Of a stretch of DNA of 64,000 bases, positions 13,617-55,037 are shown in pieces. The stretch comes from an uncultured Eubacteriales bacterium (GTDB lineage Bacteria; Bacillota; Clostridia; Christensenellales; UBA1242): contig CARTDZ010000001.1 in NCBI GenBank assembly GCA_949067325.1, forward strand, positions 4,266-68,265, read 5' to 3'. The position numbers and the translations under genes were made by a program. The notes below the pieces were generated by a model. The model did no database searches. It saw nothing but the letters and a program-made list of their open reading frames with translations, and had not been told where the DNA came from. Numbering within the stretch: position 1 is the first letter of the stretch; each line of letters starts with the position of its first letter.

Positions 13617-14513
13617 ATGGGTATCTTTAAAAAAATAGGTGATGCGCTCAAAAAAACACGTGAGGCATTTTCACGCAAAGTTGACGCGCTTTTAAGCCAT
13701 GGCGAACTTGACGACGATTTTTTTGATGAATTGACAGATATTCTTATATCCTGCGACATCGGTGTACGTACAAGCATGGACCTTGTTGATAGTCTTCGTG
13801 TTCGTGCAAGAAAAACCAAGATAAGAAATGCTGAAGATGTACGCAACGAACTTAAAAATATTCTTCGTGAAGAGTTTGATGCATTGAAGCAAATTGATAT
13901 AAAGTATCCTGCTATAATAACCATAATCGGCGTAAACGGGGTTGGCAAAACCACAACGATTGGCAAACTGGCTTCATATTTTAAAAGTCAAAAAAAGGAA
14001 GTTACTCTTGTGGCAGGCGACACTTTTAGAGCAGCAGCTTCAAGCCAACTCAATGAGTGGGCAGAGCGTACAAAAACTCGTATCATCAAGCACGCGGAAG
14101 GTGCAGACGCAGCAGCCGTAGTGTTTGATGGTATAACTTCTGCAAAAGCAAAAGGCACAGATGTTCTTTTGGTTGACACTGCTGGAAGATTGCACACCAA
14201 AACAAATCTGATGGAAGAACTCAAAAAGATAGACAGGATTATCAATCGTGAATATCCAGAGGCAAACAAATACAATTTTATTGTGCTTGACGCCACAACA
14301 GGCCAAAACGCACTCTCTCAAATCAATGCTTTCAAAGAATTCGTGTCAATCGATGGCATAATCTTGACCAAGCTTGACGGCACTGCAAAAGGGGGAGTTG
14401 TGGTCGCTATTGAAAAGGATTATGGTCTTCCAGTGGCTTTTGTAGGCACTGGCGAGGGCGTGGCAGATCTTGACCTTTTTGATAGCAATGAGTTTGTCGA
14501 CAATCTTTTTTAA
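13617..14513 (+). CDS. ftsY: signal recognition particle receptor FtsY (short, NG-domain form)
   Basis: GVNGVGKTTTIGKLA, DTAGRL and TKLDGTAKGG motifs. Confidence 0.9.
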   Translation: MGIFKKIGDALKKTREAFSRKVDALLSHGELDDDFFDELTDILISCDIGVRTSMDLVDSLRVRARKTKIRNAEDVRNELKNILREEFDALKQIDIKYPAIITIIGVNGVGKTTTIGKLASYFKSQKKEVTLVAGDTFRAAASSQLNEWAERTKTRIIKHAEGADAAAVVFDGITSAKAKGTDVLLVDTAGRLHTKTNLMEELKKIDRIINREYPEANKYNFIVLDATTGQNALSQINAFKEFVSIDGIILTKLDGTAKGGVVVAIEKDYGLPVAFVGTGEGVADLDLFDSNEFVDNLF

Positions 14514-17131: not shown

Positions 17132-17140
17132 AAAACTGTT

Positions 17141-17471
17141 AGTTAAGCAGACAGTCGCATCTTTTTATAAGATGAGGAAAGTCCGAGCTTCAAGAGAACT
17201 GGGTGCTGGTTAACGGCCAGTGAAGGCGACTTCAAGAATAGTGCAACAGAAATAAACCGCCTAGCTTTTGCTAGGTAAGGATGGAAAGGTGGTGTAAGAG
17301 ACCACCGATTGGTTGGAGACAGCCAATGCTCTGTAAACTCCACCTGAAGCAAGGCCAAAAAGGCAATAGGGCTTGTTCTCTCCCGCCTTTTAACGTGCCG
17401 CTTGAACCTTTTGGCAACAAAAGGTCTAGATAGATGACTGTCAAATACAGAACTCGGCTTATAGCTTAACT
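17141..17471 (+). ncRNA. rnpB: RNase P RNA, bacterial class A
   Basis: Conserved blocks GAGGAAAGTCCGAGC, AGTGCAACAGAAA, GTAAACTCCACCTGAAGCAAG and ACAGAACTCGGCTTA are present. P1 pairs AGTTAAGC(17141-17148) with GCTTAACT(17464-17471). Confidence 0.9.
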
Positions 17472-17487
17472 AATCAATCAAAAACAA

Positions 17488-25574: not shown

Positions 25575-25610
25575 AAAAAAGAAGGCAATCAATCAGATAC
25601 CTTCTTTTTT
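25575..25610 (+). terminator. rho-independent terminator
   Basis: AAAAGAAGG/CCTTCTTTT stem with a 14-nt loop, followed by a T-run. Confidence 0.55.
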
Positions 25611-25885
25611 TGTGGCGTTGCCACTTTTTTTAAATTTTGTTTTGCACAAATCCTCAAATTAAAGAATTTTATGTGGCGTCGCGTGGCGTCGCGTGGAGTT
25701 GCCACTTTTTTTTAAATTTTATTTTTCTTAAATTCTCAATTTTAAAAATTTTATGTGGCGTCGCGTGGAGTTGCCACTTTTTTTTAAATTTTATTTTTCT
25801 TAAATTCTCAATTTTAAAAATTTTATGTGGCGTTGCGTGGCGTTGCCACTTTTTTTTAAATTTCGTTTTGTCACAATTATTTTAA
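25611..25885 (+). repeat. tandem array of 4 hairpin+T8 modules (60/82/72/about 60 bp)
   Basis: Units start at 25611, 25671, 25753 and 25825. Each has (A)TGTGGCG..GCCAC, then T7-8, then an AT-rich tail. Unit 2 equals unit 3 plus an internal 10-bp GCGTGGCGTC duplication. Confidence 0.9.
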
Positions 25886-25915
25886 ACTTTACAAAACTCG
25901 TCTTGGAAAAATTTG

Positions 25916-45942: not shown

Positions 45943-45971
45943 TTGCTTTTTATTTTATTTTAGGTTATAAT
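45943..45971 (+). promoter_or_regulatory. sigma-A promoter of the rimP-nusA-infB operon
   Basis: TTGCTT(45943-45948), 17-bp spacer, TATAAT(45966-45971), preceded by about 220 bp of extremely A/T-rich DNA. Confidence 0.5.
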
Positions 45972-45986
45972 ATTTATAACTTGACA

Positions 45987-46013
45987 GGGAGGAGGCAAAA
46001 AAGGCCTCCTCCT
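45987..46013 (+). promoter_or_regulatory. leader hairpin (SD-like / anti-SD arms) upstream of rimP
   Basis: GGGAGGAGGC(45987-45996) pairs with GCCTCCTCC(46004-46012) and is followed by TTGTGTT. A second small hairpin GTGTT-aagac-AACAC lies at 46015-46029, and the real RBS GGAGGTG at 46035-46041. Confidence 0.45.
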
Positions 46014-46047
46014 TGTGTTAAGACAACACTTATGGAGGTGCAAAAAT

Positions 46048-46509
46048 TTGGCAAAAGTCAAGCAAATTTGCGAAGAAAAAGTATGCCCAGTTATTGAGGA
46101 AATGGGTTACGACGTCGTAGAAGTAGAATACGCAAAAAAATCAGATGGAATGAATTTGACATTCTACATTGACTGCGATAAAGGCATCGATCTTGCCGAT
46201 TGTGAAAAAGTGGCAAAAGTAATAGACCCGCTTTTAGACGAACTCAATCCAACCGACGACCAGCCTTATATCATGAACGTAAGTTCTCAAGGCCTTGATC
46301 GCCCACTCAAAACTGAACGCGATTTTAAAAGAAATCTTGGCAAGGAAATCGAAATTGTCCTTTTCGCCAAAATTGACGGCAAGAAAAACTTTAAAGGCGT
46401 CTTAAAAAGTTATGATGAAAAAAGCGTAACCATCACAACGGCAAAAGAAGAAGACCTTGCACTAGAACGCCAAAAGATTGCGCACATCGTGCCAATAATC
46501 AAATTTTAA
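46048..46509 (+). CDS. rimP: ribosome maturation factor RimP
   Basis: ...VCPVIEEMGYDVVEVEY...LTFYID... TTG at 46048 lies 6 nt after GGAGGTG (the ORF track starts at 46015). Confidence 0.85.
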   Translation: MAKVKQICEEKVCPVIEEMGYDVVEVEYAKKSDGMNLTFYIDCDKGIDLADCEKVAKVIDPLLDELNPTDDQPYIMNVSSQGLDRPLKTERDFKRNLGKEIEIVLFAKIDGKKNFKGVLKSYDEKSVTITTAKEEDLALERQKIAHIVPIIKF

Positions 46510-48289: not shown

Positions 48290-50824
48290 TTGGCTAATCA
48301 ATTAAACAATCTTAAAACAATTCATGACTTGCAAAAAGAAGGTGTCATAAACGAAGCTCTTCGCAAGGTTAGGGCAGCAAAAAGCGAAGTTGAAACATTT
48401 GCAAAACGTCTTTTAGATCGCAGGCGCGCAATTGACGACGAAAATGCTAGGGCAGAAGCTAAAAAAGCTCAAGCTCAGGCTCAAAATGAAGCTATGCAAG
48501 CGAAAACGGCAGAAAAAGAGGTTGATATCTCAGTGAAAACTGAACAAACCCCTGTCTTTTCTAATGGCGCAAATACAAAAAACAATTTTCGCTCATTCAA
48601 CCAAAACAGCCAAATTCAAAGGTCAAACAATCCAAGATTTCAAAATCAAAACGCCACTTCACGTCAGGGTGGAACATTCCAAAATGGCCAACGTCCAAAT
48701 GCAAACAACCGCTTTCAAAATCAACAAGGCGGCCAACGCAATGGTCAGGGGCTTGGCAACAGGCCTCAAATGGGTGCAAAACGTCCTGCAAACTTTGTGT
48801 CTACAAAGGGCAACAATTTTCGCTCTTTTGCATCAAATGATTTGTCAGAACTTGAGGTAAAAACAGACCGCAATTTTGCTCAAAAAACAAAAAATGCACA
48901 AAAGCACAACTCTGCAAATATTGATGAACGCAAATCTCAAACTCGTCGTCAGCAAAATGACAATCGTCGAGTAACTTTTATTGAAGACGAAGATGGAATT
49001 CAAGAAGTAAGCTATGGCTCACGAAAGAGCGTTCTCAAAAAGAAAAAAGAAACCGTAGTTGTCGCTCCAGCAGTTACTCATGCGGTGTTTACATCAAAAG
49101 AAATTTCAGTCAAAGATTTCAGCGAAAAAATAGGCAAGCCAGTCACAGAAATCGTTAAAAAACTTATGCTTGTCGGCACTATGGCCACAATCAATTCAAA
49201 TATTGACTTTGAAACGGCCGAACTTATTGCAGCTGACTTTGGCATAACGCTAGAACTTAAAGCTGCAAAATCTTTTGAAGAAAAACTTATCGAAAGTGCA
49301 GCCGAAGACGATGAAGCCTCTCTTATAAAGAGACCTCCTGTGGTAACTGTCATGGGTCACGTCGACCACGGAAAAACTTCTCTCCTCGACGCTTTCAGAA
49401 AGACTGACGTCGTTGCAGGCGAAGCGGGCGGTATAACTCAAAAAATTGGTGCTTATCAAATTGAATTTAACGGCGAAAAAATTACTTTTATTGACACGCC
49501 AGGCCACGCAGCTTTTACAGCTATGCGTGCTAGAGGTGCAAAAAGTACTGATATCGCAATTCTTGTCGTTGCAGCTGATGACGGAATTATGCCTCAAACT
49601 GTTGAAGCTATCGATCATATCAAAGCTGCTGGCGTTCCAATGATTGTTGCAATCAACAAAATGGATAAACAAGAAGCAAACCCAGACCGCATAAAGCAAC
49701 AGCTCACTGAACATGGAATTTTGCCTGAAGAATGGGGTGGAGATGCAATCTGCGTTCCTATTTCAGCCAAAACAGGAATGGGACTTGACCAACTCAAATC
49801 AACAATTCTGCTCGTGGCAGAAATGGCAGAACTTAAAGCCAATCCAAACAAAATGGCAACAGGTGTTGTTATTGAGGCAGAACTTGACAAAAATAGAGGC
49901 CCAGTTGCAACAATTCTTGTGCAAAATGGTACTCTTCGGGTTGGAGATTCAATCATGTCAGGTATAACTTATGGCAAGGTTAGGGCAATGTTCAACGACG
50001 TTGGCAAGTCAGTCAAAGTCGCTCCACCTTCAACTCCAGTATCGGTTTTGGGACTAGGTGAAGTGCCATTTTCAGGTGATCAAGTTTATGCAGTTGAAGA
50101 AACACTTTCAAAACAAGTCATTCAAGAACGTATTGATAAGATTAAAAAAGAACGCGCAATGCAAAGCAGCGGTGTAACCCTTGACAACTTTATGAACAAA
50201 GTTCAAGAAGGCACACTTAAAAACCTTAACATAATCTTGAAGGCAGATTCAATGGGTTCTGTTGAAGCTGTTAAAAATGCCATTCTTGTTATCCGTAATG
50301 AAGAAGCAAAGGTCAACATTGTTCATAGCGGTGCGGGCGCAGTTACTGAATCAGACGTTATCCTAGCGCAAACAACAGGTGCTATTATAATCAGCTTCAA
50401 CCTTAAAACAATAGCCAAAGTTGATGTTTTGGCTGAAAAACTTAAAGTTCAAATCAAAGATTACAAGATCATATATGAAGTTGTTGATGATGTAACAGCT
50501 GCAATCAATGGTATGCTCAGCGTTAAGTATCAAGAAGTTTATATTGGAAACGCTGAAGTGCGAGTAGTTTTCAAACTTTCAACTGCTGGCAAGGTTGCAG
50601 GAAGTTATGTCAAAGATGGCAAATTAACAAGAAACGCTATTGTTAAAGTCAAACGCGGCGACGAAGAGATTGGCGTAACAAGCATCGAATCACTCAAAAT
50701 TGTCAAAGATGAAAAGGCAGAAGTTGCCAAAGGTTTTGAATGCGGTGTCAAGCTTCGCGATAATATTGACTTTAAAGAAGGCGATATTTTGGAATGCTAT
50801 GTCAAAGAAGTCATAAAAAGATAG
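48290..50824 (+). CDS. infB: translation initiation factor IF-2
   Basis: TTG start after AAGGAG. A Q/N/G-rich N-terminal region is followed by the G domain ([21 protein letters not shown]) and domains II-IV. Confidence 0.95.
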
Positions 50825-50827
50825 AAG

Positions 50828-50875
50828 GAGGGAGGAATTTTTAGCATAAGAAAGCTTATTCCTCTTTCTTATTTT
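50828..50875 (+). terminator. hairpin plus T-rich tract immediately after the infB stop (terminator/attenuator-like)
   Basis: GAGGGAGGAAT(50828-50838) pairs with ATTCCTCTTTC(50858-50868), including two G-U pairs that only work on the + strand RNA. TTATTTT follows. Confidence 0.4.
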
Positions 50876-50896
50876 ACTCATAAGGATTTTATAGGT

Positions 50897-50988
50897 GGCG
50901 GAAGTCCAAACTTTGCTAGATGCAAAGTTTGTTCCTGCTGCCGAGGCAGCAGGAACTGCGAAAGCTTGCAGCTTTCGCGACTTCCGCC
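50897..50988 (+). ncRNA. 92-nt perfect four-way-junction element (unknown function; strand not determinable from pairing)
   Basis: The closing stem pairs 50897-50906 with 50979-50988. It encloses three hairpins (50907-50931, 50932-50955, 50958-50978). There are 39 Watson-Crick pairs, no mismatches, and 2 unpaired junction nt. Confidence 0.5.
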
Positions 50989-51054
50989 AAAAGCTGTCGC
51001 CTTCGTCTAAGCCTTTTCTTAAAATCAAACAAAAACTATAAAAGGAGAAACATT

Positions 51055-51432
51055 ATGTCAAATCGAATAGAAAGAGCCAATAGTGAAGTTCAAAGATGCA
51101 TTGCGCAAATCTTAACTACCAAAATGAGTGATCCTCGTTTAAGTCCATTTCTTTATGTCAGCGAAGTTAAGCTTACCCCTGATTTTAAATATTGCAAAAT
51201 CAAAGTCGCTCTTGATAGTGATGACAAAGCCTATCTCAAGCAAAATCTTGAAGTTCTGCAAAAGTCAGAAGGCTTTATCAAACGTGAACTATCGAAAATT
51301 GTCGATATGCCATCAATGCCAAAACTTGTTTTTGAACTTGACAAAGGCACTAGTGCAACAATCAGGGTAAACGAACTTTTAAAAAACCTTAATATTCCAA
51401 AACTGGAAGAAGAGGAGGGCGAAGATGAATAA
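51055..51432 (+). CDS. rbfA: ribosome-binding factor A
   Basis: MSNRIERANSEVQRCIAQIL...VSEVKLTPDFKYCKI. ATG at 51055 follows AAAGGAG (the ORF track starts at 50920, inside the structured element). Confidence 0.9.
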   Translation: MSNRIERANSEVQRCIAQILTTKMSDPRLSPFLYVSEVKLTPDFKYCKIKVALDSDDKAYLKQNLEVLQKSEGFIKRELSKIVDMPSMPKLVFELDKGTSATIRVNELLKNLNIPKLEEEEGEDE

Positions 51433-54967: not shown

Positions 54968-55037
54968 ATCAAATACTTTAAATCAAATCACATTCGATCA
55001 AATCACATTCGATCAAATCACATTCGATCAAATCACT
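54968..55037. repeat. 15-bp tandem repeat, about 4.7 copies (ATCAAATCACATTCG)
   Basis: Perfect copies lie at 54982-54996, 54997-55011 and 55012-55026, with degenerate flanking copies. Junctions create three GATC sites. Confidence 0.85.

Follow-up and report, generated by a model that had tools for sequence, protein, structure and literature searches.

What is a perfectly paired four-way junction doing between infB and rbfA in a 64-kb stretch of DNA (contig CARTDZ010000001.1; hereafter the window, meaning the whole stretch that was analysed) from an uncultured gut Clostridia species? The element covers window nucleotides 50896–50989 and consists of a closing stem and three hairpins, held together by 40 Watson-Crick pairs, mismatches and G-U pairs being absent. 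We confirm that the junction is real and lies far beyond chance expectation. It is a lineage-specific structured operon-spacer element which falls outside any Rfam family. As to its role, we propose, with a confidence somewhat short of even, a young RNA structure that works in cis within the rbfA leader, either as a barrier to nucleases or as a processing module.

The junction and the infB-rbfA spacer

The 5' arm of the closing stem (T plus GGCGGAAGTC, plus strand, 50896–50906) pairs over 11 bp with the 3' arm (GACTTCCGCC plus A, plus strand, 50979–50989). Enclosed by it on the same strand are hairpin 1 (CAAACTTTGC/TAGAT/GCAAAGTTTG, 50907–50931; 10 bp, 5-nt loop), hairpin 2 (TTCCTGCTGC/CGAG/GCAGCAGGAA, 50932–50955; 10 bp) and hairpin 3 (GCGAAAGCT/TGC/AGCTTTCGC, 50958–50978; 9 bp, 3-nt loop), with two unpaired junction nucleotides, CT, at 50956–50957. 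The pairing of G50931 is ambiguous: it can be assigned to hairpin 1 (10+10 bp) or, through a G50931-C50956 pair which extends the second helix to 11 bp, to hairpin 2 (9+11 bp). A first-pass annotation of the window, made from the sequence alone, had described this four-way fold at 50897–50988. Its letters are exact and its pairs are all Watson-Crick as it stated, but the closing stem is 11 rather than 10 bp long, a T50896-A50989 pair having been missed, and the pairs number 40 rather than 39.

RNAfold returned the four-way junction both as the minimum free energy (MFE) structure and as the centroid (-68.8 kcal/mol, z = -8.91). In 200 dinucleotide shuffles no fold as good was obtained. The fold is retained when the entire 251-nt spacer is folded, on the plus or the minus strand, and it still forms under DNA parameters (-43.5 kcal/mol, z = -10.8). 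When the 64-kb window was scanned in 120-nt folds, the junction ranked first in stability at -66 kcal/mol, the runner-up reaching -43, and it thereby outranked the RNase P RNA region of the same window. Only 10 distinct hairpins in the window are perfect over 9 bp or more, and three of these adjoin one another in the junction; the raw hits number 14 in the real window and 0–6 in block-shuffled sequence. The GC content of the junction is about 54%, against 37.5% for the window as a whole, in agreement with the earlier remark that it is GC-richer than its surroundings. A GC(G)RAAGY-like core was read by eye, with no statistics attached, in three of the four helices. The earlier caution that a single copy cannot tell which strand acts, or whether it acts as DNA or as RNA, holds.

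The genes flanking the junction are co-oriented members of one operon, and the junction is on their sense strand. The order is nusA, ylxR, a 93 amino acid open reading frame (ORF), infB, the junction, rbfA, a gene for a DHH/DHHA1 protein, and truB. Its upstream neighbour is infB (48290–50824, plus strand; IF2, 844 amino acids) and its downstream neighbour rbfA (51055–51432, plus strand; 125 amino acids, Pfam RBFA), the start of which is situated 66 nt downstream and is preceded by a good Shine-Dalgarno sequence. Neither a promoter scan nor manual reading revealed a convincing promoter in the infB-rbfA spacer of the window, and rbfA is therefore probably read through from infB. The first-pass annotation placed the junction in the slot that ylxP (DUF503) occupies in Bacillus. 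This could not be upheld: no ylxP/DUF503 gene was lost, the spacers of the relatives being merely short, and the ORFs over the junction region (48 amino acids on the plus strand, 112 on the minus strand) have no Pfam match, DUF503 included.

Directly after infB the spacer contains a separate hairpin, GGAGGGAGGAA...TTCCTCTTTCT (50827–50869, plus strand), which includes G-U pairs and is followed by a U-rich tail. In it, a Shine-Dalgarno-like arm (GGAGG/AGAGGAA) pairs with a complement-like arm (TTCCTCT). This hairpin is common to the window and to the related loci L008, L009, L010 and L035, and is a terminator- or attenuator-like element, possibly the counterpart of the t3 site of Escherichia coli. 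The junction itself was ruled out as an intrinsic terminator since no U-tract follows on either strand (the closing stem runs into AAAAGCTG on the plus strand and CCTATAAAATCC on the minus strand), and the terminator scan lists none there. Read from the sequence, the segment TTTTATAG at 50887–50894 (plus strand) is the perfect complement of CTATAAAA at 51036–51043, whose segment (51036–51047, plus strand) overlaps the rbfA Shine-Dalgarno sequence AAGGAG (51042–51047). These two may form an outer helix around the insertion, a helix which is absent from the RNAfold MFE structure.

Distribution, known families and further copies

The source species is also represented by the metagenome-assembled genomes (MAGs) GCA_948551495.1 and GCA_948709845.1 and by several Logan assemblies. 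The junction was present in all seven independent contigs with an identical RbfA, derived from different samples, and is thus not an assembly artefact. The only polymorphism inside it among these contigs is an A-to-T change at 50944, in the loop of hairpin 2. Strain divergence among the seven is at most 0.65%, and within-species polymorphism therefore says nothing on constraint.

The comparison set consisted of 80 loci of related species and of several contigs from Logan and ENA, with 30 loci added from the metagenome collection. In the 80 genome loci the spacer between infB and rbfA measures 9–547 nt (median 58), and the spacers are not alignable between species of the group. The five closest loci (L008, L009, L010, L088 and L089), with RbfA proteins 81–85% identical to that of the window, have spacers of 58–105 nt. 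L088 and L089 are near-identical to each other, and only L008–L010 were aligned; these share the post-infB hairpin, a short AT-rich stretch and a ribosome-binding site, with no junction. In the window, nucleotides 50870–51035 (plus strand), comprising the junction with about 26 nt upstream and about 46 nt downstream, could not be aligned to the closest relatives; the edges of this stretch are not sharp and no target-site duplication is found there. About 80 other related species show nothing similar in this place, and most of their spacers are too short to accommodate a junction. As judged from these comparisons, the junction is a lineage-specific insertion of some 130–165 nt, seen in one species only. 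The suggestion of a new structured noncoding RNA, in the sense of a conserved family, is consequently not supported, because the closest relatives and the roughly 80 other species are without it.

The first reading had also set the junction apart from tRNAs and from known ribozymes, and here it was borne out by the absence of any ARAGORN or Rfam match. A tRNA cloverleaf has a 7-bp acceptor stem, arms of 4–5 bp, a 7-nt anticodon loop, a T-loop and a conserved core; the junction, with stems of 9–11 bp and loops of 3–5 nt, does not have these proportions. ARAGORN found no tRNA or tmRNA in the window. Rfam gave no gathering-level match in the spacer, where the best sub-threshold scores were 10–18 bits against thresholds of 38–95, and no tRNA-clan match even at E-values up to 10; nine related spacers were likewise without an Rfam match.

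No second copy was located on either strand of the window by exact 20-mers with at most three mismatches, by a repeat finder, or by a covariance model run without filters, and nothing similar was seen in 706 kb of related loci. BLAST searches of phages and plasmids yielded short partial matches only, covering at most one third of the query and mostly at chance level. Pattern scans of JGI metagenomes gave no match. Two pattern matches in IMG/VR, both GC-rich, were read and judged to be chance, and a later IMG/VR scan produced none. Four of the six reading frames through the junction are open, and the six-frame peptides matched nothing among 5.8 billion protein clusters. Across the window, the 706 kb of related loci and the protein clusters, the evidence leans towards a single or low copy number.

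These searches bear directly on two alternatives. One is that the region encodes a small protein, since an ORF of 48 codons (50895–51041) begins with GTG, has AAGGA 8 nt upstream, and ends 14 nt before the rbfA start. The GTG, however, is buried in the 11-bp closing stem of a structure of -69 kcal/mol; the product belongs to no Pfam family and has no homologue among the 5.8 billion clusters; it was passed over by the gene callers in all seven contigs; and nested palindromes account for the sequence better than coding constraint does. On these grounds we rejected the small protein, to which we give almost no credence.

The other is that the junction is a selfish or mobile nested palindrome, either like a transposable element of the miniature inverted-repeat kind (MITE) or a repetitive extragenic palindromic (REP) sequence or like the GC-rich hairpin elements which invade organelle genomes of high AT content, or else a scrap of foreign DNA lodged in a permissive spacer, with any effect on the operon being incidental. 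Such an origin would suit an insertion relative to all relatives, GC-rich within AT-rich intergenic DNA, bounded by perfect 11-bp terminal inverted repeats, and with no donor sequence in the window or the relatives. It would also suit the DNA-level symmetry of the element, in which both strands fold equally well and wobble pairs are lacking. The copy number speaks against it, with one copy in 64 kb and none in 706 kb of related DNA, as does the lack of anything convincing in the phage, plasmid, IMG/VR and JGI searches and, for four open frames, of any translation among the protein clusters. Nor does the element pass as a MITE, for beside its 11-bp terminal inverted repeat no direct repeat is common to the flanks TTTTATAGG and AAAGCTGTC, nor can a target-site duplication be seen. 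The genes called in the neighbouring part of the operon include no transposase, the remainder of the window not having been screened for one. We regard a mobile or foreign palindrome as possible, though on balance doubtful.

Junctions and hairpins in other rbfA leaders

Is the position itself prone to such structures? We scanned the window together with 86 related loci, 551 kb in all, for three abutting hairpins of at least 5 bp each within a closing stem of at least 6 bp, allowing Watson-Crick pairs only. Exactly two four-way junctions emerged, against none in shuffled sequence. Both are situated in the spacer between infB and rbfA, a region that accounts for 1.1% of the scanned DNA; no other intergenic region covered by the scan has one. 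The 30 additional loci from the metagenome collection added no further junction. A relaxed scan, in which G-U pairs and short stems were allowed, was dropped as noise (196 hits versus 141 in shuffles).

The second junction belongs to L022 (2751–2828), a Clostridia MAG from the gut of a water deer (JAGAKV01), with an RbfA 66% identical to that of the window. It reads AATAATTGAAAGAA, GTTTAC-ATT-GTAAAC, AGTAAGC-ATTC-GCTTATT, CAAACAT-TCT-ATGTTTG and TTCTTTCAATTATT, and its closing stem overlaps the -10 box of a strong promoter-like sequence, TTGAAA-16-TATAAT (11 of 12 matches), and is itself followed by a T-run. When the strict scan was applied to later loci, the same junction was recovered in the infB-rbfA spacer of L097 (473–550), a Logan contig with 90% RbfA identity to L022. 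Between the two, paired positions differ at 4 of 68 and loop positions at 5 of 10 (Fisher p = 0.0012); the changes in pairs comprise one compensatory A-T to G-C, one G-U to A-U and one A-T to A-C. In the sister lineage L099/L100 (88%) the closing stem is kept around a plain 22-nt loop. On this pattern of differences, a simple leader hairpin appears to have been elaborated into a junction in the L022 clade, and its stems appear to be under maintenance. The presence of two junctions in the same spacer, together with the conservation of the L022 stems, speaks for selection of such a junction in this place. In another contig, L096 (1–60), with an RbfA 99% identical to that of L022, the sequence breaks and turns unrelated in mid-junction, probably an assembly break at the palindromes.

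Like the junction of the window, that of L022/L097 consists of a closing stem and three abutting hairpins in the same spacer and is almost wholly Watson-Crick, with loops of 3/4/3 nt where those of the window are 5/4/3 nt. It differs in being AT-rich (25–30% GC) and 78 nt long, in overlapping a promoter and in having the T-run, and many junction-free lineages separate it from the species of the window. With a covariance model of the window junction, the score of L022 was 20.6 bits on the minus strand, as against 13.8 on the plus strand. Homology of the two was not supported (component shuffle P = 0.07 and 0.34), and they are probably of independent origin.

From this recurrence one might argue that the four-way shape is itself selected in the rbfA leaders of uncultured gut Clostridia, perhaps as a site through which RbfA, IF2 or an RNase senses ribosome assembly, and arose independently at least twice; or that both junctions belong, as highly diverged members, to a new class of site-specific nested-palindrome mobile elements able to insert into this spacer in either orientation, the covariance model scoring L022 best on the opposite strand. 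We hold this pair of ideas to be quite unlikely.

The recurrence at the same place in a second lineage might equally be enlisted for a trans-acting small RNA or protein decoy released from the operon transcript, for example a tRNA or rRNA mimic which binds IF2, RbfA or TruB in feedback, and a compact, self-contained fold among genes for proteins that handle tRNA and rRNA would be in keeping with it. Conservation, though, is lacking even in close relatives; there is no T-loop, anticodon or other recognisable protein-binding motif; and the element has neither a promoter nor a terminator of its own. We think such an RNA very improbable indeed.

The overlap of the L022 closing stem with a -10 box also raises the matter of a function at the level of DNA, as a cruciform or junction-like structure or an array of palindromic protein sites serving transcription, replication or recombination. 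The strand-symmetric pairing, the very stable DNA fold and the GC(G)RAAGY-like core seen by eye in three of the four helices would agree with this. But stems of 9–11 bp with loops of 3–5 nt extrude poorly from duplex DNA, no promoter-like site adjoins the junction of the window, and among the neighbouring operon genes no recombinase or other DNA-level partner was called, the remainder of the window not having been screened. To our knowledge the junction resembles no site of the dif, parS or att type. A DNA-level function is in our estimation very improbable.

Finally, the apparent elaboration of the L099 hairpin into three inner hairpins in the L022 clade could be taken to mean that the junction is neutral debris, left by successive template-switch (quasi-palindrome) errors in a fast-evolving spacer and neither selected nor mobile. 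The spacer is certainly plastic, at 9–547 nt and unalignable between species, and perfect stems throughout are what is expected right after template switching, a process that can make them in a single event and can also repair existing ones (PMC8794818). Against this, four perfect abutting helices with only two unpaired nucleotides are much to ask of unselected events, local spacer DNA is far poorer in GC, and the L022/L097 analogue conserves its stems over its loops. Comparison of the junction with its own flanks, as template or as source of a duplication, gave no significant similarity that would name a template. We therefore rate neutral debris as unlikely.

Hairpins in general are habitual in the infB-rbfA spacers of this group, one type being placed directly after infB. 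A recurrent layout upstream of rbfA (L030, L107/L108, L140/L141, L143/L146 and L099) consists of a sigma-70-like promoter and then a stem, which encloses one small inner hairpin, GC-richer and variable; the 5' arm of the stem holds the -10 box and its 3' arm adjoins the rbfA Shine-Dalgarno sequence. Such a leader is found in the more remote members of the L022 clade. At the RNA level, the -10 arm would occur solely in transcripts that read through from infB. The long spacers of two distant relatives, L074 (about 2920–2990) and L083 (about 2780–2860), contain a common hairpin-rich motif, GCATAATACACCA...ATAT...GTGTTATGC, without an Rfam match.

Possible function and likeness to known systems

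The reading that we tentatively prefer, a young cis-acting structure in the rbfA leader, starts from the structure and position of the junction, its fixation in the species, its absence in relatives and the selected analogue found elsewhere. For transcription, for every nuclease step and for the origin we infer the following. The junction would be transcribed within the nusA-infB-rbfA-nrnA-truB mRNA through read-through of a leaky, terminator-like post-infB hairpin, and the transcript would fold into the four-helix junction of about -69 kcal/mol and act in cis. There it could block 3'-to-5' exonucleases arriving from downstream, so that infB mRNA is protected, while a nearby endonucleolytic cut would leave a structured 5' end that shields rbfA-nrnA-truB from 5'-to-3' decay. 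Two coaxial stacks of about 20 bp each might in addition form an entry site for RNase III; the earlier statement that rnc lies in the window is correct, RNase III with a double-stranded RNA-binding domain being encoded near 9.3 kb. In sum, the fate of rbfA mRNA would no longer be coupled to that of infB mRNA. The element may have originated by recent palindrome-making at the DNA level, through replication template switching, or have arrived as foreign DNA; a recent origin would leave no time for G-U pairs or mismatches and so explain the perfect stems, and the high GC content also fits an imported piece of DNA. Among functional classes, the role in RNase III processing or as a stabiliser that the first-pass annotation suggested would be the most plausible.

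Several observations weigh against this reading. The junction is absent from the spacers of the five closest loci and is therefore dispensable for the operon. Its GC content of 54%, set beside 12–35% for the spacers of neighbouring relatives, argues against an origin from local spacer DNA. At the divergence seen between strains only about 0.5 stem substitutions are expected, so that finding none is uninformative, and covariation is not measurable. As the L022 junction is not detectably homologous, the evidence of selection transfers by analogy only. RNase III substrates are about two turns (at least about 20 bp) of continuous double-stranded RNA, and no single helix of the junction (9–11 bp) is long enough, only the presumed coaxial stacks attaining about 20 bp. 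Lastly, zero G-U pairs in 40 would be unusual for a selected RNA, and a DNA palindrome or a recent origin fits equally.

If the cis-acting reading is true, one mutational step or a few sufficed for the operon to gain a very stable module for RNA processing or stability, and we see a snapshot of the birth of an RNA structure whose stems are still perfect; the second, independent junction hints that the rbfA leader repeatedly recruits such structures. Should the junction be merely a selfish or neutral palindrome, it would be of local interest only. Whichever reading holds, it should not enter catalogues as a conserved noncoding RNA family.

Other structured elements of the window may be recorded here. 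The bacterial RNase P RNA class A at 17139–17477 (290 bits) is its sole gathering-level Rfam match, and there is no tRNA gene anywhere in the 64 kb. Between convergent ORFs, nucleotides 25601–25898 hold four tandem units at spacings of 82, 72 and 72, two of the copies being identical; each has GTGGCGT(C/T)GC repeats as well as a GTGGC-GTT-GCCAC hairpin that runs into T8, and by sequence they look like stacked intrinsic terminators. A short tandem array with a 15-nt unit, ACATTCGATCAAATC, is intergenic and downstream of an efp-like gene (54975–55034). Unusually stable local folds are formed by long hairpins at 14041–14160 and 14381–14500, and a stable pair of perfect hairpins, including GGAGGAGGC-AAAAAAG-GCCTCCTCC, lies upstream of nusA (45961–46080).

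Four known systems invite comparison with the junction. Like the REP sequences and bacterial interspersed mosaic elements (BIMEs) that serve as intercistronic stabilisers, of the malE-malF type in E. coli, it is a GC-rich, stable palindrome between operon genes, its presence varies between lineages and the genes do not need it; its co-transcription and its blocking of exonucleases are expected only. REPs, on the other hand, are single imperfect hairpins of 20–40 nt, found in tens to hundreds of copies and associated with REP-associated tyrosine transposases (RAYTs), whereas the junction packs four perfect helices into 94 nt, is known from a single copy, carries no GTAG/CGTC tag at its ends, and has no RAYT called among the neighbouring operon genes. 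The bacterial MITEs whose RNA folds and is processed on co-transcription (Correia elements of Neisseria, ERIC, pneumococcal BOX/RUP, and bcr1 of B. cereus) are likewise small non-coding insertions, bounded by terminal inverted repeats and predicted to fold strongly as RNA; they are situated in operon spacers and are possible targets of RNase III. They are multi-copy, produce target-site duplications and form one long imperfect hairpin; the junction differs from them in its cloverleaf-like architecture, in the lack of a second copy in the window or the 706 kb of related loci, and in showing no duplication.

The metY-nusA-infB-rbfA operon of E. coli offers the same operon and the same kind of position. 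There, the partial terminator t3 lies between infB and rbfA, just upstream of the latter, infB mRNA exceeds rbfA mRNA in abundance, and the transcript is processed by RNase III at two sites in the operon (PMC6511841). Unlike t3 the junction has no U-tract, and it is the hairpin at 50827–50869 that would be the counterpart of t3 in the window. The 5' stem-loop stabilisers of Firmicutes, such as the ermC and aprE leaders, are single hairpins at a mapped 5' end rather than four-way junctions. They share with the element of the window a stable structure upstream of a coding region and a possible shield against 5'-to-3' decay, and in relatives this spacer has a promoter with a stem-loop directly behind it.

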